Virus record (IMG/VR): IMGVR_UViG_3300029913_000003
Span: 1 to 64,000 of that record
DNA from: a virus
Length of the DNA stretch: 64,000 nucleotides
Reading direction: 5' to 3' (one strand)
In this document: positions 11,268 through 57,006 of the stretch, piece after piece
How the letters are laid out: every line of letters starts with the position of its first letter
Position numbering within the stretch: the first letter of the stretch is position 1
Made by a program: the position numbers and the translations under genes
The notes under the pieces: generated by a model
The model's input: only the letters and a program-made list of their open reading frames with translations
Told to the model about the DNA's origin: nothing
The model's database searches: none

Positions 11268-11385
11268 CCGTCAACTTAAACATGCACAAATTTGTACAGG
11301 AAGTGACGTTTGGATGTTGTTTGATAACATTCCTTGTCCGAACACACTATTCTTTATAAATTTAAAGAAATCGTAGTCGCATTTA
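11268..11385 (-). ncRNA. putative omega-RNA (reRNA) scaffold region at TnpB 3' end
   Basis: ~118 nt at the 3' end of the TnpB ORF is repeated at 28386..28508; hairpin with conserved loop ATCAAAC kept by compensatory stem changes. Confidence 0.4.
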
Positions 11386-12728
11386 ATTTTAACTGGATTA
11401 CACAGTTTAAACATATAATTTTTCAGCCATGAAAAATCATTATTTTTGTTTGATTTTTTAATATGATTAACTGCACCATTTAAATCTGCATTCATTGTTT
11501 TATTTATTAGTTTGTCTGTAAACAATCCACGTTTAGAACGAACACCATTTAGTTCTTTATCTAACGGATTATTAACATCATCACTAACACAAGAACACTT
11601 GGAAGTGTAGGCTTCGTTAATTATATCTACTTGAATTCCAACTTCATTACTTTTATATTGAATGTAATCCAATAATTTAATGAAAGGAATCTGTATGAAA
11701 TTTTGTTTTACTTTATTATTTAATTTGCAGTCACCATTATATTTTAAGCTAGCTAAATTATATGATATGGTTAGGTTTGTTACTGAATTTAATTTCAAGA
11801 ACTCAACTACCCTTTTACTTACTTTATGAAACTGATCATAAAAATAACGATTCCTCTTTTCATAAAGAAATGTCTTATACTTCCTTAATTCTATTCCTCT
11901 TTGAGTCCACTTGGAAGCATATTTAATATTATTTTTACTTAAACTATATTCTATTACTTCGTTAGAAATTGATTCATTTAATTTAGCTATAAAACGATTG
12001 AATTTTGAGTTATAAGTCTTAAAGTGATTTCCATCTACAATAATTGATTTAGATTTTTTATCATCAATAAATATTGCAAGCAAATTATTGACTCCAACAT
12101 CAATCCCTGCTTCTTTTATGTTCAAATTACTATTTAAAATATCTTCAGTTAAATAGTTCAAGTGTAAATAAATTTCTTTGTTTGAGTAAACTATTTTAAG
12201 GCTTTGAATGTTTTTTGGTAGAAATTCGTGTTTGAAATCAATGTAAAACATTTTATTACTTAAGTTAATTCCAATTTTATCTTTTTTCTTGAAGGAAAAT
12301 GCAATTTGATCAACTAAAATTGAATATTTTGTTACCAAGAATAGCTTTTTAGCACTGGGTGTATTTGCCTTAACTTTTTGTTTGATTTTAGTGAAAAATG
12401 CTTTATAACTTACTTTAACTCTCTTAATCAAATCAGAAATATTATGAATTTTAAGACATTTAGATAAACGAATCAACTCAATCATTTTATCATAATTTTT
12501 ATATTTATCTTTAATAAACTTTACTTTGTCTTTTTCCAAACCGCCAGCAGTTTCAGCAAGAACTGCTCTCATGACTTTATAGTTAGAAAGTAAATTAAAA
12601 TCTTCTTGGTTTTCCTTCAATATTATAAGGTATAAGTTTTCGAAGTGACGATATTTGAAAATATAATCACTCATCATTTTTTTATATTTATCTTCTTTAA
12701 TGTGTATTATGAAGGTTCTATTATTCAT
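11271..12728 (-). CDS. tnpB: TnpB / Fanzor-like RuvC-fold RNA-guided nuclease (IS200/IS605 OrfB family)
   Basis: RuvC-I GIDVGVNN, RuvC-II INEAYTSKCSC, RuvC-III NADLNGAVNHI; 485 aa; no adjacent TnpA. Confidence 0.8.
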   Translation of the reverse strand: MNNRTFIIHIKEDKYKKMMSDYIFKYRHFENLYLIILKENQEDFNLLSNYKVMRAVLAETAGGLEKDKVKFIKDKYKNYDKMIELIRLSKCLKIHNISDLIKRVKVSYKAFFTKIKQKVKANTPSAKKLFLVTKYSILVDQIAFSFKKKDKIGINLSNKMFYIDFKHEFLPKNIQSLKIVYSNKEIYLHLNYLTEDILNSNLNIKEAGIDVGVNNLLAIFIDDKKSKSIIVDGNHFKTYNSKFNRFIAKLNESISNEVIEYSLSKNNIKYASKWTQRGIELRKYKTFLYEKRNRYFYDQFHKVSKRVVEFLKLNSVTNLTISYNLASLKYNGDCKLNNKVKQNFIQIPFIKLLDYIQYKSNEVGIQVDIINEAYTSKCSCVSDDVNNPLDKELNGVRSKRGLFTDKLINKTMNADLNGAVNHIKKSNKNNDFSWLKNYMFKLCNPVKIKCDYDFFKFIKNSVFGQGMLSNNIQTSLPVQICACLS

Positions 12729-17019: not shown

Positions 17020-17231
17020 AAATAGGAGATATAGTAATATATATAGGTAAAGATAATAAATTAATATATTTGAAAGAATATACTATTTATTATATAACTA
17101 CAACAGGATTTAATTATATATTTTTTATGATTGATGGAATTAATGCTATGAGCATGTTTCCTATTGAAGATTTTTGTACATTAAAAGAATATAGAAAATT
17201 AAAATTAAATAAATTATGCTCAACCAAGTAA
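17016..17231 (+). CDS. family A small protein (MKIGDIVIYIG ... LKEYRKLKLNKL)
   Basis: ORF track. Confidence 0.55.
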   Translation: MKIGDIVIYIGKDNKLIYLKEYTIYYITTTGFNYIFFMIDGINAMSMFPIEDFCTLKEYRKLKLNKLCSTK

Positions 17232-17434
17232 AAGGAATTACAGCTAAAACAGAATTAGATAAAAAAGCATATGAAAAATATGAAGAGTATATTGATATTC
17301 AAGGTTATTACACTCAATATACGTTAGATTTATTCTTAACTCAAAAGAAATCTAATAAAATTAAATTATTTTATGAAATAGCTTTAAAACAATTGAGATT
17401 AGATAAATTAAATAAATTATGTATACAGAATTAG
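17216..17434 (+). CDS. family D small protein (...KLNKLCIQN), TAG stop
   Basis: First of 4 tandem paralogs with overlapping junctions. Confidence 0.5.
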   Translation: MLNQVKGITAKTELDKKAYEKYEEYIDIQGYYTQYTLDLFLTQKKSNKIKLFYEIALKQLRLDKLNKLCIQN

Positions 17435-17613
17435 AAAAATTAAACAAGTTTGCATATGATATGTTTATATACGACATGAAAAATAAATATAGAATAAGCT
17501 ATTTGACTATTTATGAATTTATTGAAAATAAAGAAATATATCATAATTATTATGATAAAGCAAAAAAATTAATAAGAAAAGAAAAACTTAATAAAATATG
17601 CACACAAACGTAG
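17419..17613 (+). CDS. family D small protein (...KLNKICTQT), TAG stop
   Basis: Tandem paralog. Confidence 0.5.
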   Translation: MYTELEKLNKFAYDMFIYDMKNKYRISYLTIYEFIENKEIYHNYYDKAKKLIRKEKLNKICTQT

Positions 17614-17789
17614 ATATGCTAGCATATGAATTATATTGTGAAAGTAGAAATCCAAAGGATGAAGGATATTCATGCCTATGTACATTTGATTATTTTATTT
17701 ATAAAAAAAATGAATATCAATTATATTATGATAAGGTTATCAGAAAAGAAAAACTTAAAGAATTAAATGAAATATGTACACAGAATTAG
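17598..17789 (+). CDS. family D small protein (...ELNEICTQN), TAG stop
   Basis: Tandem paralog. Confidence 0.5.
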   Translation: MHTNVDMLAYELYCESRNPKDEGYSCLCTFDYFIYKKNEYQLYYDKVIRKEKLKELNEICTQN

Positions 17790-17965
17790 ATAAATTGACA
17801 TATAAATTATATTCAGAATATATGATGTCTGAAAGATGTATTATTTGGAATGATATTGAATATTTTATAAAACGTAAAGATTCATATCATGATTATTTCA
17901 ATGACGCTATAATTAAATTAAGAAAAGAAAAACTCAATACTATATCAAAATATGTGCAAATTTAA
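17774..17965 (+). CDS. family D small protein
   Basis: Tandem paralog. Confidence 0.5.
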   Translation: MYTELDKLTYKLYSEYMMSERCIIWNDIEYFIKRKDSYHDYFNDAIIKLRKEKLNTISKYVQI

Positions 17966-22288: not shown

Positions 22289-22612
22289 ATGAAAACTACA
22301 ATAAAAAATGATATAAAAAAACTGGCGGAGAATCAATCAAATCTCAGAAATCAAAGAAAAACTATTCACATTAAAGGTGAAAGAGTAATGGAATCATGGA
22401 AAGCAGATTATTTACATTCTGAAAACAGACATGAATTAAGAATGTTATATGCAGCTTATGCAGTATTAAAAGGTAAAATATTTGAAGAAATTGAACCTAA
22501 AAATAAACCAGATAAATTGCCTTTATCATATTACAAAAATTCAATTGATAAATTAGTTGAAAAATATAATGTGATAGAAGAAATTAAAGATGAATCATTA
22601 GCATCTATTTAA
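22289..22612 (+). CDS. hypothetical protein (107 aa)
   Basis: ORF track. Confidence 0.45.
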   Translation: MKTTIKNDIKKLAENQSNLRNQRKTIHIKGERVMESWKADYLHSENRHELRMLYAAYAVLKGKIFEEIEPKNKPDKLPLSYYKNSIDKLVEKYNVIEEIKDESLASI

Positions 22613-22613
22613 T

Positions 22614-22940
22614 ATGATAATGAAAAACGTCAAAGATGATTTAGAAAAAGATAAATTATTTATATTAATTGACAACAAGCTTGATGTTACTTATGGAGGA
22701 GTTCAAGGTGCTCACGCTTCATGCCAATGGTTACTTGATCATAAATAGGTGCAAACCTGGAATAATCAATACTTAATTTTTCTATCTGCAGAACTTGAAA
22801 AATGGATATTTAAGTTAACTCTTAAAAATATAGATTTCACAGTGTTCTATGAACCTGATTTAGATAATAAACCAACTGCATTAGCAGTACATGGCAATGA
22901 TTCTCTATTTCGTAATTTAAAACTTTGGGGTGCTTTATAA
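22614..22940 (+). CDS. PTH2-like peptidyl-tRNA hydrolase with one in-frame TAG (codon 45)
   Basis: 22614..22745 and 22749..22940 are the same frame separated only by TAG 22746..22748; GGVQGAHASCQ ~ PTH2 GKGKxAAQCSHA; C-terminal FRNLKLWGAL ~ GHLKLL; human PTRH2 has Gln at the TAG position. Confidence 0.55.
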
Positions 22941-22947
22941 GCACCCC
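22927..22947 (+). promoter_or_regulatory. GC-rich stem-loop over the PTH2-like stop codon
   Basis: ggggtgc tttataa gcacccc; 7-bp G/C-rich stem with TAA in the loop, 15 nt before the tRNA. Confidence 0.4.
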
Positions 22948-22962
22948 GATTTTAATAAAAAT

Positions 22963-23033
22963 GCTCATTTAGTCCAGTGATAGGGCGGTAGCCTCTAAAA
23001 CTACCTACATCGGTTTGAATCCGATAGTGAGCA
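22963..23033 (+). tRNA. tRNA with anticodon CUA (amber-reading / suppressor-type), hand-folded
   Basis: Acceptor GCTCATT/AGTGAGC; D-stem GTCC/GGGC; anticodon stem GTAGC/ACTAC with loop CTCTAAA (U33, A37); T-arm ATCGG-TTTGAAT-CCGAT; discriminator A; 71 nt. Confidence 0.65.
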
Positions 23034-23070
23034 CAAATATATTTTTCATAAGGTATATTTATTTTTAAAA

Positions 23071-23099
23071 GGATTGAAATTCATTTCAATCCTTTTTTT
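23071..23099. terminator. intrinsic terminator after the tRNA
   Basis: ggattgaaa ttca tttcaatcc then ttttttt. Confidence 0.6.
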
Positions 23100-25707: not shown

Positions 25708-25914
25708 ATGATGGATAATTTAAATTATCTTAATTGTAATTATAAAATTCATATTCAATATCAAGTAAATGATTATATAAACATAAATGATGTTTTTATA
25801 TATCCATATTATGCAGCCAATGAATGTGATATTATATTAACAGATTTTGATTTTATTAAATATTATAGAAAACAAAAACTTAAAGAAATATGTTTAAACC
25901 AGGAGATAGAGTAG
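25708..25914 (+). CDS. family A member with decayed N-terminus (tail YYRKQKLKEICLNQEIE)
   Basis: Upstream in-frame remnant DYGVAVVFSRK lacks a start. Confidence 0.45.
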   Translation: MMDNLNYLNCNYKIHIQYQVNDYININDVFIYPYYAANECDIILTDFDFIKYYRKQKLKEICLNQEIE

Positions 25915-26132
25915 TTTGCATAAATGATGAAAATAATTGTGATCCAAATATAAATCTAATTAAATATAATATTTATATTGTAAAAGAGTTACATGAATAT
26001 ACCAATAATAGAATAATATTAGAATATCATGAAAATAGTTTATATTATAATACTAGATTTATATTATTAAAAGAATATAGAAAAGAAAAACTCAAACAAA
26101 TAGAATTATGTTCAAACCAGGAGATAAAGTAG
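25890..26132 (+). CDS. family A small protein (MFKPGDRVVCIND)
   Basis: Tandem array; junction ELCSNQEIK overlaps next start. Confidence 0.6.
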   Translation: MFKPGDRVVCINDENNCDPNINLIKYNIYIVKELHEYTNNRIILEYHENSLYYNTRFILLKEYRKEKLKQIELCSNQEIK

Positions 26133-26344
26133 TGTGTATTAATGATAAATATTTTTATAATGATAAATCTATAATAGAAATGATTAAATATAATATTTAT
26201 ACAATAAATAGAATTGCAGAAATTTCAGGTAGCAATACAGATAGAGTTGTATTATATGAATGTAAACGTATGTATTTTTCACACAGATTCATATCATTAA
26301 AAGAATATAGAAAACAAAAATTATTAGAAATATGTTCAAAGTAG
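26108..26344 (+). CDS. family A small protein
   Basis: MFKPGDKVVCIND ... RFISLKEYRKQKLLEI. Confidence 0.6.
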   Translation: MFKPGDKVVCINDKYFYNDKSIIEMIKYNIYTINRIAEISGSNTDRVVLYECKRMYFSHRFISLKEYRKQKLLEICSK

Positions 26345-26598
26345 GAGATAAAGTAGTTTGTATTGATGTTAAAAAATATAATAATAATAATTATAATGTA
26401 AACCTAATTAAATATAATATTTATACAATTAATATAGATTTTTCAGTTTTTGATAGATCAAGTTTTGGTAGATCAAGAGTTGAAATAAAAGAATGTTGTA
26501 ATGAGACATTTTATTCAGAGAGATTTATATTATTAAAAGAATATAGAAAACAAAAACTCAAACAAATAGAATTATGTTCAAACCAGGAGATAAAGTAG
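26332..26598 (+). CDS. family A small protein
   Basis: MFKVGDKVVCIDV ... RFILLKEYRKQKLKQI. Confidence 0.6.
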   Translation: MFKVGDKVVCIDVKKYNNNNYNVNLIKYNIYTINIDFSVFDRSSFGRSRVEIKECCNETFYSERFILLKEYRKQKLKQIELCSNQEIK

Positions 26599-26813
26599 TT
26601 TGCATTGATCAACAATATAGAAAAAAATACAATTTACCTAATACAATATTAGAAGTTACAGAATATAAAGATATAAGATATAAAAAATTATTTAGTGAAA
26701 ATTTTATTATTTGTTTCAAAGATATAAAATATGGATATAATTATAATTGTTTTATGCTATTAAAAGAATATCGTAAATTAAAATTATTAAAATTAAATAA
26801 AAATGATAAGTGA
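26574..26813 (+). CDS. family A small protein
   Basis: MFKPGDKVVCIDQ ... LLKEYRKLKLLKL. Confidence 0.6.
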   Translation: MFKPGDKVVCIDQQYRKKYNLPNTILEVTEYKDIRYKKLFSENFIICFKDIKYGYNYNCFMLLKEYRKLKLLKLNKNDK

Positions 26814-27084
26814 ATCAAGTCTTGTTAATTATATAGAAAATCTAAATCTTAGAAAAACCCATGAATGTTTTGATACTAACTATATAATTGATAATAATTA
26901 TATAATATGCATTGAATCATCTACTAATGTTTTTTTCATAGATAAAAAAATGAATTCGAACCTGTATATTTTCATAATTAATATTGAAAAATTAAAAGAT
27001 ATTTATTATAAAAAAACTGGTAAAAATATAGAAATTTTAATGAGAAAAGAAAAACTAAAAAAATTAGAAGAATGTTCAAGATAA
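26803..27084 (+). CDS. divergent array member (tail LMRKEKLKKLEECSR)
   Basis: Lacks GD start motif. Confidence 0.45.
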   Translation: MISESSLVNYIENLNLRKTHECFDTNYIIDNNYIICIESSTNVFFIDKKMNSNLYIFIINIEKLKDIYYKKTGKNIEILMRKEKLKKLEECSR

Positions 27085-27296
27085 GAGATAGAGTAGTTTG
27101 CATTGATAATTCTTATTTATATGATATAAATCTATTACAATTAAATAATATTTATATAATTGAAGATATTTTTAGTTATGATACAGAAAATAATTATATT
27201 GGTATGATATTAGAAAAATATAATTTTGAATTTAATTCTAATAGATTTATATCATTAAAAGAATATAGAAAACAAAAAATATTAAAATTATGTTAA
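27072..27296 (+). CDS. family A small protein (MFKIRDRVVCIDN)
   Basis: ORF track. Confidence 0.55.
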   Translation: MFKIRDRVVCIDNSYLYDINLLQLNNIYIIEDIFSYDTENNYIGMILEKYNFEFNSNRFISLKEYRKQKILKLC

Positions 27297-27535
27297 AACC
27301 AGGAGATAAAGTAATTTGTATTGATAATTCTTATTTAGATGATAATAGTATGAGAAAATTATTATTAAACCATATTTATATAATTAAACTATGCTTTACA
27401 TATCAATCAGATCATTTTAATTATATTATATTAGAAAATGATTTTGAATATCATGAAAATAGATTTATAACATTAAAAGAATATAGAAAACAAAAACTAT
27501 TAAAATTATGTTCAAACCAGGAGATAAGTTATTAG
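27290..27535 (+). CDS. family A small protein (MLKPGDKVICIDN)
   Basis: ORF track. Confidence 0.55.
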   Translation: MLKPGDKVICIDNSYLDDNSMRKLLLNHIYIIKLCFTYQSDHFNYIILENDFEYHENRFITLKEYRKQKLLKLCSNQEISY

Positions 27536-27756
27536 AAATATCAACTAACAAAATTTTCACATTCTGTGATTATATAAAAACTATATCATATTCATCAAAT
27601 TATAATGATATGATAGTGAATGATTATGATTATGAAAATGGTTTAATATCAATCAATGAAGATGCAGAAAATTATCATAGAATTAATAAATATTTATCTA
27701 TTAAAGAATGTAGAAAAGAAAAACTTAAAAAATTATATAAAGATTTTAATATTTAA
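27508..27756 (+). CDS. family A divergent member (MFKPGDKLLEIS)
   Basis: ORF track. Confidence 0.5.
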   Translation: MFKPGDKLLEISTNKIFTFCDYIKTISYSSNYNDMIVNDYDYENGLISINEDAENYHRINKYLSIKECRKEKLKKLYKDFNI

Positions 27757-29914: not shown

Positions 29915-30208
29915 ATGAAAGAGCACAATCACAATAATGATATTAATTATAATGCTGTTATTGAACAATGTGGTTTAATATTATATAAAAAGAAAGCAAT
30001 AGGTAATAAAGCAAGATTATTGTATATAATTCAAGCAAAATCTGGTAGATATGATCATCAAAGTATTATTATAATAAAAGAAATTAATAAAGATTTCATA
30101 AAAATAAATGATTCTAATGATATAGAATCAAAATTATATGAACCAGATAGATTACTTTATAACCAAATAAAAGAATATATAATAGAAGCAAATTATGAAT
30201 ATAGATAG
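29915..30208 (+). CDS. hypothetical protein
   Basis: ORF track. Confidence 0.45.
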   Translation: MKEHNHNNDINYNAVIEQCGLILYKKKAIGNKARLLYIIQAKSGRYDHQSIIIIKEINKDFIKINDSNDIESKLYEPDRLLYNQIKEYIIEANYEYR

Positions 30209-31217
30209 AAAATTAGCAACAATTCAGGTAATTAAAGACATATTACCAATTAAAGGAGCAGATAGAATAGAGGTTGCACGCATAAAAGGTTGGAAAGTAG
30301 TAGTTAAAAAAGACGAATTTAAAGTAGGTGACAAAGTTGTTTATTTTGAAATTGATTCACTATTACCTATTAGAGAAGAATTTGAATTTCTTAGAAATAG
30401 TTCATATAGAAAAACTGATGAACAAGAAGGTTTCCTCTTGAGAACGGTCAAATTACGCAAACAATTTTCATGTGGACTAATAATGTCATTAGATATTTTA
30501 AATGATACACCTTGTCATATATTTAAATTGACAGAAGGTGATGATGTATCTGATTATCTAAATGTTGTAAAATTTGAAGTTCCAATACCTGATGAACTTA
30601 AAGCTGATGTTGTTGGTCCTATTCCTTCATTCATATTGAAGACAAATGAAGAACGCGCACAAAATTTATCTGATGATTTCGATGAATGGAAAAAAGATAA
30701 TGTAATATTCTATGAAACAGAGAAACTTGATGGTCAATCTACCACTATGTATTTACATAATGGAGTATTTGGCGTGTGTGGTAGAAACTGGGAATTTAAA
30801 AGAAATCCAAATAATTTATTTTGGAAATTTGCAATTGAAAATAATATTGAAGAGAAATTAAGAATATATGGTAAAAATATTGCTGTTCAAGGTGAATTAA
30901 TTGGTTCAGGAATAGAAGGCAATAACTATAAATTAAGCCATAAAACAATAAAATATTTTAGAGTTTTTAATATAGATGAATATAAATTGGAAGATTATAA
31001 TACATTCGTTGATATTGTAACTAATGTATTAAATGCTGACACGGTTCCTTTAATTTGTAGTTATTATAAATTACCTGGCACTATTGATGAAATATTAAAA
31101 CATGTTGAAGGCAAATCTGTATTAACAAATTCATCAAAAAGGGAGGGAAGTGTATTTAAATCAATTGATTCATCAATAAGTTTTAAGGTCATTAACAATG
31201 AATATTTAATTAATTGA
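30195..31217 (+). CDS. ATP-dependent RNA ligase (Rnl5/DraRnl-like: N-terminal OB/tRNA-binding fold plus nucleotidyltransferase)
   Basis: N-terminus IKGADRIEVARIKGWKVVV..VGDKVVYFE resembles OB tRNA-binding fold; ligase motif I ETEKLDGQS (KxDG); 340 aa. Confidence 0.5.
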   Translation: MNIDRKLATIQVIKDILPIKGADRIEVARIKGWKVVVKKDEFKVGDKVVYFEIDSLLPIREEFEFLRNSSYRKTDEQEGFLLRTVKLRKQFSCGLIMSLDILNDTPCHIFKLTEGDDVSDYLNVVKFEVPIPDELKADVVGPIPSFILKTNEERAQNLSDDFDEWKKDNVIFYETEKLDGQSTTMYLHNGVFGVCGRNWEFKRNPNNLFWKFAIENNIEEKLRIYGKNIAVQGELIGSGIEGNNYKLSHKTIKYFRVFNIDEYKLEDYNTFVDIVTNVLNADTVPLICSYYKLPGTIDEILKHVEGKSVLTNSSKREGSVFKSIDSSISFKVINNEYLIN

Positions 31218-40670: not shown

Positions 40671-40885
40671 AAACAGATAAATTAAAAAATAGATTACTTG
40701 AGTTTTATATATTAGGATTCAAAAATGAAATAGATTTTTGTGATGTACCAAATAAAGAAAATCTAAAAAAATCATATTTATTAGGAAAAAAACATTCAGA
40801 TGCAGGCGATACATTTGAATCTACTGAATATTTGAACGACGATATCATTGAATATTTAATAGAAAAAGAGGAATTAAATTATTGA
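40667..40885 (+). CDS. hypothetical protein
   Basis: ATGA overlap. Confidence 0.45.
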   Translation: MKTDKLKNRLLEFYILGFKNEIDFCDVPNKENLKKSYLLGKKHSDAGDTFESTEYLNDDIIEYLIEKEELNY

Positions 40886-40907
40886 GGATGAATAAATTAT
40901 AAATAAT

Positions 40908-40931
40908 ATTTGCAATTTGCAAATTGCAAAT
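40908..40931. repeat. perfect 24-bp palindrome ATTTGCAATTTGCAAATTGCAAAT
   Basis: Self-complementary; starts an ORF-free 700-bp region holding the tRNA-like cluster. Confidence 0.6.
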
Positions 40932-41206
40932 TTAAAAATTTTATATATAGTTTATGATTGTGAGTTATTAATTTAACTATCAATTAATTAAGTTAGAGAA
41001 GCTTAACGATTTATTATTTACGTAAAAAATGATACTGATTGTGCTATAGTTTAATAGTGCTAAATGGATAAGGAATAACCAATTCCCCCATTTTAGGTGA
41101 CTTTTTTTAATTCAGTAAGACGATTAAGTTGTTTTTTTCAAAGTAAAAAAACATTGGTTACATCTATTCATTGTATTCTCAGGTGGAGATAGCTAGGTGG
41201 CGGAAA

Positions 41207-41288
41207 GGTTAGACGTTTGGGTAAAAGTCCCATTAGTGAGGTAGCTCAAAGATTATTTCTTATATAGGTTCGAGTCCTATCCTAACTA
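41207..41288 (+). tRNA. tRNA-like gene with canonical T-arm; body does not fold as a standard 76-nt cloverleaf
   Basis: T-arm ATAGG-TTCGAGT-CCTAT; acceptor GGTTAGA/CCTAACT (6/7); D-arm TGGG-TAAAAGT-CCCA; anticodon arm unresolved. Confidence 0.35.
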
Positions 41289-41298
41289 CATTTAAAAA

Positions 41299-41359
41299 TG
41301 AAAAGACGGATCTAAGCCAAAAAAGCATTAGTATGTGGGTTCAACTCCCACATTTTCAC
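41299..41359 (+). other. tRNA-like fragment (T-arm plus acceptor-like ends; too short for a full tRNA)
   Basis: GTGGG-TTCAACT-CCCAC; TGAAAAG/ATTTTCA ends; 61 nt. Confidence 0.25.
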
Positions 41360-41375
41360 TAAATAATATTAATTA

Positions 41376-41468
41376 AAGAAAGTAAGTCAAAAGGTCAGAC
41401 TAGTAAAGCCAAAAAAGCGTTTATATAAAAAATATTCATTTATGTTGGTTCGAATCCAACCTTTCTTT
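41376..41468 (+). tRNA. tRNA-like gene with canonical T-arm and D-arm plus ~20 extra nt (possible intron)
   Basis: Acceptor AAGAAAG/CTTTCTT perfect 7 bp; D-arm AGTC-AAAAGGTCA-GACT; T-arm GTTGG-TTCGAAT-CCAAC; anticodon region not canonical. Confidence 0.4.
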
Positions 41469-41635
41469 CAAAAATTTAAAAATATGAAATCACATACTCA
41501 AAAAAATAATTTTTTATTTAACTGAAAAGTTTGTGATGATGAAAAAACTTTTTTTGAATTTTTGAAATAATAATAAAATATTGAATTTTTTATTTGGTTA
41601 ATCCATAATATAGTTGTATCTTTGTAAGCTATATT

Positions 41636-41893
41636 ATGGATTTATTAATTTATATTATGAAACAAGGGGATAAAGTAGTTTGTATATGTAACACAAGAGG
41701 AGCCTTTATGGGGAGTCCAAGATTATATGTAGGTAAAACATATACAGTAAAAGATTATCATATGGTAGGATTTTCTGCAAATTTTATATGTCTTGATGAG
41801 CATCCACAATATTCATATACAGAAAAAGATTTTATAACTCAATCTGAAAATAGAAAAAATAAGTTAAATAAAATAAATAAATGTATAATATGA
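41636..41893 (+). CDS. family A-like small protein (MKQGDKVVCIC ... ENRKNKLNKI)
   Basis: ORF track. Confidence 0.5.
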   Translation: MDLLIYIMKQGDKVVCICNTRGAFMGSPRLYVGKTYTVKDYHMVGFSANFICLDEHPQYSYTEKDFITQSENRKNKLNKINKCII

Positions 41894-54717: not shown

Positions 54718-55656
54718 ATGAAAAAAGATAAAAAATTAGTCATATCTTGTGGATTACCAGCAGCAGGTAAATCAAGCATCATTGAAAAATATGTTGATTA
54801 TAAATGTACATTACTATCAAGAGATATTGAAGGAGATACATTAAGTTCTCTTAATAAAAAACTTGAACAATTAATGTTAGATGGCGTGGATATTGTATTA
54901 GATGGAACATATTCAACTAAATTATCTAGGGCTGATGTTATTGAATTAGCAAAAAAATATAATTATTATATATTATGTATTCATTTTACTACAAAAATTG
55001 AAGATTGTATGTTCAATCAGGTAACAAGAATGATAAGAAAATATGGTAAATTATTCACAGAATTAAGTGAATATTCTAACTCTAATGATCCACATATGTT
55101 TCCTGTTGCTGCACTTTATAAAATTAATAAAAATTTTGAAGCACCTGAATTATCAGAAGGTATTGATGATATAGAAAAAATAGATTTTAAACGTTATTCA
55201 TCAGAATATAAAAATAAAGCAATTTTATTTGATTATGATGGTACATTGAGATTAACTAAAAGTGGTGAACATTATCCAACTGATATTAGTGATATTGAAA
55301 TAATTCCAGGTAGAACAGAAAAACTTTTAGAATTACAAAGTCAAGGTTATATATTACTTGGAGTTTCAAATCAAAGTGGAATAGCAAAAGGATTATTATC
55401 TAATGATACAGCAATAGCTTGTTTTGAAAAAACAAATGAAATGCTAGGAGTTAATATTGATTATAAATATTGTGGGCATTCAGTTCCTCCAATAACTTGC
55501 TATTGTAGAAAACCAGGAGTTGGACTAGGAATAGAATTTATTGAAAAATATAAACTTGATCCATCTCAATGCATAATGGTTGGAGATTTAACAAGTGATA
55601 AAACATTTGCTAAAAGATGTGGATTCAAATATATTGATGCTGCTAATTTCTTCTAA
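54718..55656 (+). CDS. polynucleotide kinase / 3'-phosphatase (T4 Pnkp-like: P-loop kinase plus HAD phosphatase)
   Basis: Walker A SCGLPAAGKSS; HAD motifs LFDYDGTL, GVSNQSG, VGDLTSD; domain order as in T4 Pnkp. Confidence 0.6.
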   Translation: MKKDKKLVISCGLPAAGKSSIIEKYVDYKCTLLSRDIEGDTLSSLNKKLEQLMLDGVDIVLDGTYSTKLSRADVIELAKKYNYYILCIHFTTKIEDCMFNQVTRMIRKYGKLFTELSEYSNSNDPHMFPVAALYKINKNFEAPELSEGIDDIEKIDFKRYSSEYKNKAILFDYDGTLRLTKSGEHYPTDISDIEIIPGRTEKLLELQSQGYILLGVSNQSGIAKGLLSNDTAIACFEKTNEMLGVNIDYKYCGHSVPPITCYCRKPGVGLGIEFIEKYKLDPSQCIMVGDLTSDKTFAKRCGFKYIDAANFF

Positions 55657-56013: not shown

Positions 56014-56283
56014 TTGGTATTATGAAAGATAAACTTTTTAAAATTTTTAAAATTTTTTATAATTTCATTTTATTGATTGTATATGGATATATGTTTTCAC
56101 TTACAATTGGTGCAATAAAAATTACATATAATTTATATAATATTCATTATTATTCATTAAATAAATGTATTTAGAATTATATTGTTTTAGGATTAGTTTC
56201 ATTGATAATTTTTATTATATTTATTACTATATTAGTTATTTCATATATTACATTAAAAACTAAAAAAAATAAAATATAAAATT

Positions 56284-57006
56284 ATGCCAAAAATTTATGA
56301 AGTGGGCGGATGTGTACGTGACCGTATCTTAGGAGTTGATTGTAAAGATATAGACTTTACTTTTGTATTGGATGACAAGAATCAATCAGTTGAATCTGGA
56401 TTCATGTCAATGGACTTGTGGTTACGTAAAAATGGCTACACCGTATATAATTCAACTCCAAGATGTTTCACAATCAAAGCAAAGTTTCCAAAAGGACATA
56501 AGCATGAAGGGTTAACTGCAGATTTTGTAATGGCTAGAAAGGAAATTGGTTATTACGAAGGAACAAGACGTCCAATTTTAGAACTTGGTACACTTGAAGA
56601 TGATTTAATCAGACGTGATTTCACATTGAATGCTATGGCACTTGATGAAGATGAAAATTTGATTGATTTATTTGATGGAGTAAAAGATCTTAAAATGGGT
56701 ATTCTTAGAACGCCAAGACCTTGCCAACTTACATTTGATGAGGATCCATTACGGATTTTACGTTGTGAGCGTTTTTGTATTACAAAAGGTTTCAGAATGA
56801 CTGATGATATTGAAGTTGCTATTAAAAATTATGATTATGAATCAAAAATGCAAGTAGTTTCAAATGAAAGAATTCAAGATGAACTTACCAAGTGTTTTAA
56901 ATTTGATACATTAAAAACAATTTTGATGTTGAATGAATTTCCTGAATTGAGAGATTATGTATTTAATCATACTAAGATGTGGTTGAAACCATCATTTCAA
57001 AAATAA
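56284..57006 (+). CDS. tRNA nucleotidyltransferase (CCA-adding / poly(A) polymerase) head-domain protein, Pol-beta superfamily
   Basis: N-terminal YEVGGCVRDRILGVDCKDIDFTF matches class-II GGxVRD...DxD; only 240 aa. Confidence 0.55.
   Translation: MPKIYEVGGCVRDRILGVDCKDIDFTFVLDDKNQSVESGFMSMDLWLRKNGYTVYNSTPRCFTIKAKFPKGHKHEGLTADFVMARKEIGYYEGTRRPILELGTLEDDLIRRDFTLNAMALDEDENLIDLFDGVKDLKMGILRTPRPCQLTFDEDPLRILRCERFCITKGFRMTDDIEVAIKNYDYESKMQVVSNERIQDELTKCFKFDTLKTILMLNEFPELRDYVFNHTKMWLKPSFQK

Follow-up and report, generated by a model that had tools for sequence, protein, structure and literature searches.

Organization of the locus

The stretch of DNA analyzed here, referred to as the window, comprises 64,000 nucleotides (positions 1 to 64,000 of the IMG/VR virus record IMGVR_UViG_3300029913_000003), and the element in question is a small gene related to those of PTH2-type peptidyl-tRNA hydrolases, which carries an in-frame TAG codon and is followed by a tRNA gene with the anticodon CUA (tRNA-CUA). 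The DNA belongs to a jumbo phage from peat or bog metagenomes. The window has a G+C content of about 21%, and its small genes are packed in long same-strand runs, as is typical for large phages. No match to the locus was found among annotated phages by megablast. The coordinates of all features are collected in Table 1.

As described in the initial annotation, two pieces of open reading frame (ORF), 22614..22745 and 22749..22940, lie in a common frame and are separated by a single TAG. Translation may begin at 22614 or at an ATG at position 22620, the latter as in the relatives of this gene, and the terminal stop codon is TAA at 22938-22940. The C-terminal ORF piece is recorded on nine contigs, the longest of 346,561 bp, the locus is identical in a second assembly (L001), and the same TAG is found in relatives with 92-94% protein identity. 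Thus, the TAG is not an assembly error.

The tRNA gene starts 22 nt after the end of the PTH2-like gene and is the only tRNA called by ARAGORN in the window. It matches the Rfam model RF00005 over its full length with 55.2 bits at a threshold of 29. When placed on the standard tRNA model, it has a two-base connector, a 5-bp anticodon stem, a 7-nt anticodon loop (CUCUAAA, with U33 and A37), a 7-nt D-loop and a T-loop of the sequence TTTGAAT. Relative to close relatives, the paired changes G19A/C56U are seen. The anticodon, the spacer, U33 and A37 are thus as initially annotated, whereas the cloverleaf is not as clean as claimed since it contains a C31.A39 mismatch.

Three terminator-like sites are found here, against a chance expectation of 0.0. 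They include a hairpin that is formed in part by the end of the PTH2-like gene itself and a hairpin after the tRNA. In the relative L004 the former carries a compensatory change (GGGGTGC/GCACCCC to GGGGAGC/GCTCCCC) that is synonymous in the coding arm; the hairpin is kept in this manner in the close clade, and in other clades the corresponding hairpins fall after the stop codon. As the stop-codon hairpin is followed by the tRNA after only 13 nt and a terminator comes after the tRNA, the PTH2-like gene and the tRNA-CUA gene form one unit. It is only an idea that ribosomes melting the stop-codon hairpin might raise transcription of the tRNA. The 107-amino acid (aa) gene directly upstream, whose homologues in the tblastn searches reach down to 40% identity, has no significant match to any Pfam, PHROG, NCBIfam or PADLOC family; this gene might belong to the module as its third component.

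Table 1. Features of the window and of one additional contig, with positions, strand and remarks.
Feature	Position	Strand	Remarks
107-aa gene, no assigned family	22289..22612	+	immediately precedes the PTH2-like gene in 17 loci (tblastn)
PTH2-fold gene, 108 codons, one TAG inside	22614..22940	+	aligns end to end with intact homologues
In-frame TAG, followed by GTG	22746..22748	+	codon 45 from 22614 or codon 43 from 22620
Terminator-like hairpin, followed by TTTTAATAAA	22925..22949	+	5' arm formed by the last codons of the gene, TAA in the loop
tRNA, anticodon CUA, without encoded CCA	22963..23034	+	ARAGORN and Rfam; homologous position in relatives
Intrinsic-terminator-like hairpin after the tRNA	23067..23096	+	13-pair stem and T-run; 0.0 expected in shuffles
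Second TAG gene, TAG at 56172-56174	56022..56279	+	85 codons, predicted membrane protein with two transmembrane helices
tRNA/RNA repair genes	30195-31217, 54718-55656, 56284-57006 (+); 61890-63539 (-); L049:7490-8437		

Conservation of the TAG codon and selection on the downstream part

The TAG is kept at the same codon in L001, L003-L006 and L020-L022. In the members of this group with 92-94% protein identity (L003-L006 and L020-L022), substitutions have accumulated on both sides of the TAG and no frameshift is present. When the window was compared with two such lineages, ratios of nonsynonymous to synonymous changes per site (pN/pS) of 0.07 and 0.16 were obtained downstream of the TAG and of 0.18 and 0.14 upstream. 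Of the changes in the downstream part, 2 of 9 and 5 of 13 were nonsynonymous versus a neutral expectation of 0.79 (P=4e-4 and 1.5e-3, respectively). Three different valine codons follow the TAG: the window has GTG, L003 has GTT and L004 has GTA. Since GTT and GTA cannot start translation, this argues against reinitiation behind the TAG.

More distant relatives were informative as well. Members of a clade with 65% identity (L007, L023 and L024) have Asp at the position of the TAG of the window, and they carry a TAG of independent origin, with GAA as the next codon, just ahead of the invariant EPD motif. Another relative with 65% identity (L002) has an intact gene. In the distantly related L104 a TAG is found in the same alignment column as in the window and was acquired independently. 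A tRNA-CUA gene lies downstream of the hydrolase-like gene in all of L002-L007 and L020-L024. The product encoded in the window retains all residues that are invariant in the family.

Taken together, these comparisons support the view that the TAG is translated and does not represent the lesion of a pseudogene. The initial annotation had named close relatives with an intact sense codon, together with decay of this copy by frameshifts or loss of the catalytic motif, as a sign of a simple nonsense pseudogene. The TAG is kept in the close relatives, which are free of frameshifts, and the residues invariant in the family are in place.

Relationship of the protein to the PTH2 fold

The joined product, with the TAG translated as Gln, aligns end to end with homologues that are encoded by intact single ORFs. 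The Pfam search for PTH2 proposed in the initial annotation was unsuccessful, as this product gave no match to any Pfam model even at E<=10, and it had no match in NCBIfam or among the sequences of the PDB either; the PADLOC and NCBIfam searches yielded nothing significant for the hydrolase. A profile search retrieved 1,957 representatives of the family at E<=0.001. Weak matches to PF01981 (PTH2) were found for 56 of 81 family members, the best with an E-value of 1e-7. These scores stay below the curated thresholds for Pth2 (PF01981 and TIGR00283), with a subclade member reaching 20 bits where the NCBIfam cut-off is 126. The family profile in turn detected the Methanocaldococcus jannaschii Pth2 structure 2zv3 with E=3.9e-5.

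Structural evidence came from an AlphaFold2 model of a 65% identical homologue (P0001) rather than from a model of the window protein. This model has a predicted local distance difference test (pLDDT) value of 93, and its top 15 matches in the PDB are all Pth2/Bit1 proteins (among them 2zv3, 1q7s, 1wn2, 1xty, 3erj and 1rlk) with template modelling scores of 0.6-0.68. It also resembles phage proteins annotated as peptidyl-tRNA hydrolases in a viral structure library. Judged from the profile and the homologue model, the fold is established, and the predicted protein represents a branch of the PTH2 fold that is distant and specific to phages. Residues that are invariant or nearly so in the family are His34, Trp49, Glu80, Asp82 and Thr88.

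Only five matches were found in 185,579 species genomes, all of them on contigs of metagenome-assembled genomes, one being a mis-binned phage contig of 425 kb. The TAG column maps to a variable surface loop after helix 1, where family members have Glu, Asp, Asn, Thr or Gln. The Gln of human PTRH2 that had been aligned with the TAG falls in this variable loop, and that alignment could not be verified.

Recurrence in huge phages

Scans of viral and metagenome contigs with two sub-alignments as seeds yielded 115 loci with 99 distinct homologues. A tRNA-CUA gene was found within the flanking 2-3 kb in 72 of these 99, compared with a chance expectation of about 2%. It lies on the same strand as the gene in 74 of 77 cases, and in 22 it is located within 150 nt downstream. 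An audit of the anticodon register gave clean CUA calls for 65 of 79 distinct tRNAs, 48 of them with the loop CUCUAAA.

In 60 of the 99 homologues the TAG is located at the very N-terminus, in the order ATG, zero to few codons, TAG and first conserved strand (e.g. MT#IKEGDKLY or MK#VHQKL, # denoting the TAG). Among these genes the tRNA-CUA is present in 51, as compared to 19 of the 36 genes without an N-terminal TAG, 6 more of which have a suppressor of the UUA type; of three genes with an upstream TAG that is not preceded by an in-frame ATG, two have the tRNA-CUA. A strict set, in which the TAG is at most four codons away from the ATG and none of the codons ATG, GTG and TTG occurs from the TAG to strand 1, comprises 43 genes with G+C contents of 0.23-0.66, and seven representative lineages with an N-terminal TAG show pairwise identities of 30-50%. 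The position at codon 2-5 is characteristic of one deep subclade. In other subclades the TAG is internal, as in the window; the internal TAGs occupy four alignment columns, and the column of the window was struck twice independently. Besides the leaders there are five internal sites with an in-frame stop, TAG in each case. All in-frame stops that were taken as real are TAG. TGA or TAA codons flagged in L025, L103 and L107 are located ahead of the conserved core and were taken as stops of upstream ORFs.

A purine at position +4 favours amber suppression over termination. After the in-frame TAGs the +4 base is A in 28 cases, G in 14, C in 1 and T in none (98% purine), whereas TAGs acting as terminators in the same loci are followed by T in 34, A in 31, G in 17 and C in 11 cases (52% purine; Fisher P=1e-8). 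About half of the codons after the TAG are ATT, ATC or ATA. The codon alternates between ATT/ATC and GTT/GTA, the latter pair being found in 15 of the 60 leaders. This alternation points to a constraint at the level of the amino acid. A Shine-Dalgarno (SD)-like motif fits the ATG of the leader in 13 of 43 cases and the codon after the TAG in 3 of 43, equal to the control (3 of 43). In the ORFs flanking these loci TAG serves as terminator in 10-13%. According to the coverage index described below, about 10 of the 99 loci, including those of Lak phages, appear to be TAG-recoded.

Overall, the PTH2-like gene and its adjacent tRNA-CUA constitute a conserved module of huge phages, many of them unrelated to each other, in which the in-frame TAG is recurrent and selected. 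The translation of the TAG proposed in the initial annotation is upheld by its conservation, by the purifying selection downstream of it and by independent TAGs that nearly always occur beside a tRNA-CUA. The initial description as a case of a single gene has to be amended, as the module is widespread and the window contains a second TAG gene.

Related genes were also found in 207 records of cultured Cluster C mycobacteriophages infecting Mycobacterium smegmatis, with a motif xTG-TAG-GTG ahead of the annotated 'peptidyl tRNA hydrolase'. In HyRo (L158) an atypical and unannotated tRNA at 3105-3178 lies just after the hydrolase gene, and ARAGORN assigns it the anticodon CUA. In Phabba (L159), tRNAs at 1843-1928 and 1965-2035 are annotated as Arg(tct) and 'undetermined', and ARAGORN reads CUA.

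Two further arrangements were noted in these scans. In L043 (2486-2902; also in L044 and L045) the PTH2-like ORF has no stop codon before the tRNA-CUA and runs into it, so that an mRNA lacking a stop codon would result from processing of the tRNA. This tRNA is followed by a second tRNA-like gene, whose anticodon call has an odd length of 2 bases. In L010 a phage transfer-messenger RNA (tmRNA; 1440-1781) is encoded about 1.2 kb ahead of the PTH2-like gene and tRNA-CUA, bringing functions of the ribosome-rescue type together.

The tRNA and the residue at the TAG

A comparison of the tRNA-CUA with co-resident tRNAs gave similarities at background level for every isoacceptor. The residues aligned with the in-frame TAGs of the family (Glu, Asp, Asn, Gln, Lys, Arg and Tyr) are polar and variable and thus not diagnostic for the inserted amino acid. 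The sole comparison with a close relative at a TAG codon, that of the second TAG gene, has GAG (Glu). The initial suggestion that Gln is probably inserted is not supported by these comparisons. A search with Rfam models found no theta/HDV-like ribozymes beside the suppressor tRNA.

We also considered an initiator-like amber tRNA that would start translation at UAG. This candidate was rejected, as the tRNA has a G1-C72 pair, its anticodon stem lacks a run of three G-C pairs, and internal TAGs exist. Several of the suppressor tRNAs of L007, L008, L010, L016 and L018 have the loop CCCUAAA, with C at the near-universal U33 position.

The genetic code in the window and a second TAG gene

Treating TAG as a sense codon lengthens the ORFs of the window no more than treating TGA as a sense codon does. 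A brute-force count of in-frame TAGs mostly captured non-coding frames and was of use solely as a positive control with Lak; a coverage-based recoding index was used instead. Its value is -0.02 for the window and +0.25 to +0.35 for two Lak megaphage loci serving as positive controls. TAG ends the ORFs starting at 17216, 17419 and 17598, as initially stated, and the features by which Borges et al. (bioRxiv 10.1101/2021.08.26.457843) recognize TAG-recoded (code 15) phages, including the loss of TAG as terminator, were not found in the window. The flanking DNA, covered for about 10 kb on the left side and about 8 kb on the right, likewise shows the ordinary code and contains auxiliary genes only, and no recognisable structural genes are present within the 64 kb. 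The data therefore support the earlier statement that in this region the reading of TAG does not amount to a global change of the code.

Two of about 150 genes in the window have an in-frame TAG and would thus require a suppressor, the PTH2-like gene and a gene for a predicted protein with two transmembrane helices (Table 1). The latter has an A at position +4 and ends 2 nt before the gene of the CCA-adding enzyme. In the close relative L138 an intact homologue has GAG at exactly the codon at 56172, and the transmembrane helix and basic tail encoded downstream are conserved in frame. The ENA assembly L051 has this split ORF among its calls as well. No further convincing in-frame TAG was detected in the intergenic gaps of the window. 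The presence of two such genes suggests that the phage tolerates or uses more than one in-frame TAG.

Probable decoding of the TAG and alternative explanations

Based on these sequence comparisons, we consider it likely that the TAG at 22746 is decoded as sense by the tRNA(CUA) encoded 22 nt downstream, that production of the PTH2-fold protein depends on this suppressor, and that both belong to a conserved module. In this scheme, the gene and the tRNA would be co-transcribed. The tRNA would then be processed, receive its CCA end, for which the gene of a CCA-adding enzyme is available in the window, and be charged by a host enzyme. UAG could then be read, and the full-length protein would be formed only while suppression is active. 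We infer that this tRNA is aminoacylated and decodes the TAG, that the gate would have a regulatory purpose, either in timing or as a link between the hydrolase and the activity of the suppressor, and that an ester bond on peptidyl- or aminoacyl-tRNA would be hydrolysed by the protein. Candidate roles would be to clear peptidyl-tRNAs arising from competition at UAG, to limit the suppressor by negative feedback, or simple timing. A TAG at codon 2-5 would be a cheap gate, because a failure costs only a di- to tetrapeptide.

A more specific version of this scheme, a 'readthrough rheostat' in which the suppressor tRNA and the PTH2-fold hydrolase together set the level or timing of UAG readthrough, is put forward here only tentatively, and we regard it as doubtful. 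The UAG in the hydrolase mRNA, often at codon 2-5, would make synthesis of the hydrolase a report of suppressor activity, and the hydrolase would act back on the suppressor tRNA or on peptidyl-tRNAs generated by suppression.

Several observations weigh against the decoding of the TAG by the adjacent tRNA or against parts of this scheme. For the enzymatic function the catalytic residues of Pth2 matter, which we take to be Lys and Asp at positions K18 and D86 of the Sulfolobus solfataricus protein. In the HMMER alignment the Asp of the RDAG motif of 2zv3 corresponds to the invariant Glu80, a conservative exchange, whereas the second Lys of its GKGK motif is aligned with Tyr27, which is found in 70 of 81 members; the other subclade has Ser, Leu or Tyr at this position. 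The catalytic Lys is thus absent. The relationship to PTH2 claimed in the initial annotation therefore holds in the sense of a distant homologue, by profile and fold, but the assignment as an enzyme is weaker than proposed, and hydrolase activity is putative and unproven. Furthermore, the gate is not obligatory, as an in-frame TAG is missing from 36 of the 99 homologues, among them those of the TAG-recoded Lak phages. About 18 plausible genes of the window end in TAG, many of them with A at +4, and an efficient suppressor would be expected to extend them. The C31.A39 mismatch of the tRNA has no counterpart in its closest relatives. The second TAG gene fits plain nonsense tolerance once a suppressor exists, and the status of the code is derived from about 82 kb of a genome of about 346 kb. 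In the mycobacteriophages HyRo and Phabba an SD sequence sits 7 nt from the GTG directly after the TAG. As it is placed for this GTG, the TAG of these phages may lie just outside of the ORF, and the register of the mycobacteriophage tRNA, which scores 26-31 bits, is ambiguous between CUA and UCU.

The alternatives have to be judged by the same data. If a suppressor is simply present, TAGs might drift into permissive sites, and the PTH2-like gene would merely be one of several genes affected. Such incipient or partial recoding, which is not mutually exclusive with a gate, is in our view unlikely to be the explanation. Due to the second gene, in which the TAG stands where a close relative has GAG, it also fits the data of the window; the variable surface loop in which the TAG of the PTH2-like gene is located and the roughly 10 of 99 loci, including Lak, that look genuinely TAG-recoded agree with it, and Borges et al. 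(10.1101/2021.08.26.457843) place the acquisition of suppressors before recoding. Drift would, however, hardly lead to in-frame TAGs in more than 60% of one small family while flanking genes rarely have them, nor fix the TAG at codon 2-5 across lineages that are only 30-50% identical and range in G+C content from 0.23 to 0.66. It also does not account for the tRNA adjoining this particular gene, and the 'code change' genes of Borges et al. are themselves written in the standard code.

Separate translation of the two parts, with the TAG as a real stop, reinitiation at the GTG at 22749 and the N-terminal leaders acting as mini upstream ORFs, appears quite improbable. Relatives with GTT or GTA after the same TAG and GAA in the L007 clade speak against it, as does the fact that a canonical start codon follows the TAG in only 1 of 60 leaders. 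The alternation of Ile and Val codons and the better fit of the SD motif to the leader ATG (13 versus 3 of 43) point in the same direction. A fragment comprising the N-terminal 43 aa would part the invariant His motif from the EPD motif, and the exclusive use of TAG in AT-rich genomes in which TAA dominates points to the CUA tRNA. On the other side, the codon after the TAG in the window is indeed GTG, about half of the corresponding codons in the family (ATT, ATC or ATA) are possible weak starts, and for HyRo and Phabba, where the SD sequence is spaced for the GTG, annotators start the coding sequence at this codon. A nonsense pseudogene that adjoins the tRNA by chance would be compatible with a lone stop in an otherwise intact small gene and with a product missed by Pfam. 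It is contradicted by the retention of the TAG in diverged relatives, the low pN/pS downstream, the absence of frameshifts, the complete set of invariant residues and a linkage of gene and tRNA far beyond chance, and is therefore highly improbable. Finally, decoding as pyrrolysine was considered, since ARAGORN labels the tRNA as 'tRNA-Pyl'. This label reflects the CUA anticodon alone. The tRNA fits the standard cloverleaf over its full length, its connector, anticodon stem, D-loop and T-loop presumably not being the atypical features of tRNA-Pyl, and no genes for pyrrolysine synthesis or its synthetase turned up among the scanned ORFs, although the window was not searched exhaustively. We regard the probability of pyrrolysine-type decoding as almost negligible.

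Relation to known systems

The arrangement recalls two classical cases. Release factor 2 is autoregulated by an in-frame UGA in its gene prfB, where the factor itself reads the stop codon and a +1 frameshift leads to the full-length product. Like prfB, the gene described here would be that of a translation factor with an in-frame stop, whose synthesis reports the activity at that stop; unlike in prfB, a tRNA would read the stop codon. The bar minigenes of phage lambda, a case of peptidyl-tRNA drop-off in Pth-limited cells, release short peptidyl-tRNAs, on which peptidyl-tRNA hydrolases act. The ATG-x-TAG leaders, ORFs of two to four codons that end in a stop, resemble these minigenes, a resemblance only, but here the mini-ORF is in frame with and fused to the hydrolase-like gene, and its stop codon is always TAG.

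Recoding with phage suppressor tRNAs has been described for Lak and crAss-like phages by Borges et al. (bioRxiv 10.1101/2021.08.26.457843). In their work recoded stops are distributed across structural and lysis genes, the 'code change' genes are kept in the standard code, the suppressor is acquired first and in-frame stops follow later, and a hydrolase is not mentioned. Our locus shares with these phages a phage-encoded tRNA-CUA, a host with the standard code, a low G+C content and in-frame TAGs that would make production suppressor-dependent, and the second TAG gene fits the suppressor-first order. It differs in that the region uses the standard code with TAG as a working terminator and that the TAG is located in a gene coupled to the tRNA, in many lineages near the start codon. 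Since a 'code-change' locus itself holds the recoded codon, control by feedback or timing is suggested and not late-gene recoding alone.

PTH2 genes of jumbo phages have been interpreted as serving to rescue ribosomes once tRNAs have been cleaved (Iyer et al. 2021, PMC7824862; RaK2 ORF188, PMC3622015); neither a neighbouring suppressor tRNA nor an in-frame TAG is mentioned in these papers. The fold and superfamily, the kind of phage and the tRNA-repair genes alongside are the same as in our case, whereas the branch described here stays below the Pfam and NCBIfam cut-offs and lacks the aligned catalytic Lys. XacN1, a jumbo phage with the standard code, has two tRNA-CUA genes and a peptidyl-tRNA hydrolase gene (PMC5852040). 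Its authors found no genes targeted by the suppressors, having sought homology beyond annotated amber stops only. Such a search would miss a TAG that is located at codon 2-5 but ahead of the called start; the comparison with XacN1 is based on its published description.

Suppressor tRNAs, phage recoding and PTH2 genes of jumbo phages were thus each known before. In the literature we found no paper that links a PTH2 gene with a suppressor tRNA or reports an amber codon in a hydrolase gene. As suppressor tRNAs are common in huge phages with the standard code, a UAG-gated PTH2-fold neighbour offers a concrete general target for them. If the more specific regulatory scheme proposed above were true, it would represent an autoregulatory circuit with prfB-like logic and the long-missing target of the suppressors of standard-code jumbo phages. 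For annotation it is relevant that genes of this family are systematically miscalled in public records, being either wrong at the 5' end or split (e.g. P0002), and that the tRNAs beside family genes of cultured phages are unannotated or re-labelled. The leaders provide a compact natural UAG context, ATG-AAA/ACN-TAG-AT/GT in combination with the loop CUCUAAA. The cultured phages of M. smegmatis may make part of the hypothesis testable at the bench, though their tRNA register is ambiguous.

Further features of the window

The tRNA/RNA repair genes listed in Table 1 encode an RNA ligase (two copies, when the left flank is counted), a polynucleotide kinase-phosphatase, a CCA-adding enzyme and a PPK2-HAD 'Swiss army knife' protein. 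In a gene-free gap at 40885-41636, especially at 41180-41470 (+), lies a group of tRNA-like elements overlooked by ARAGORN. It contains a 93-nt tRNA-like gene (41376-41468) with a 27-nt insertion in the anticodon arm (41 bits with Rfam), a 54-nt element without anticodon arm (41235-41288; 26 bits) and an isolated hairpin resembling a T-arm (41335-41351). The motif GCCAAAAAAGC occurs twice in this gap. Candidate explanations are tRNAs that are split or contain an intron, or tmRNA-like fragments.

An 817-aa protein encoded at 2531-4984 (+) combines a Major Vault Protein shoulder, a Vault_3 repeat and an SPFH/Band-7 domain (PF11978, 5.5e-29); such a vault-protein-like gene is unusual in a phage. 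A gene of the TnpB/OrfB_IS605 type with a Cas12f1-like TNB domain is found at 11271-12728 (-), and an array of ankyrin-repeat genes at about 58058-61156 (-). Arrays of overlapping, paralogue-like ORFs of 60-95 aa are present at 5854-7185 (-), 17216-17965 (+) and 25708-27756 (+). Many of these ORFs end in TAG and overlap by 13-25 nt, and several have a backup TAA or TGA 2-13 codons further on. Just past the right end of the window lies a large non-coding region (L051:883-4785), which over 3.9 kb contains neither a tRNA nor an ORF of at least 80 codons under any stop reassignment.

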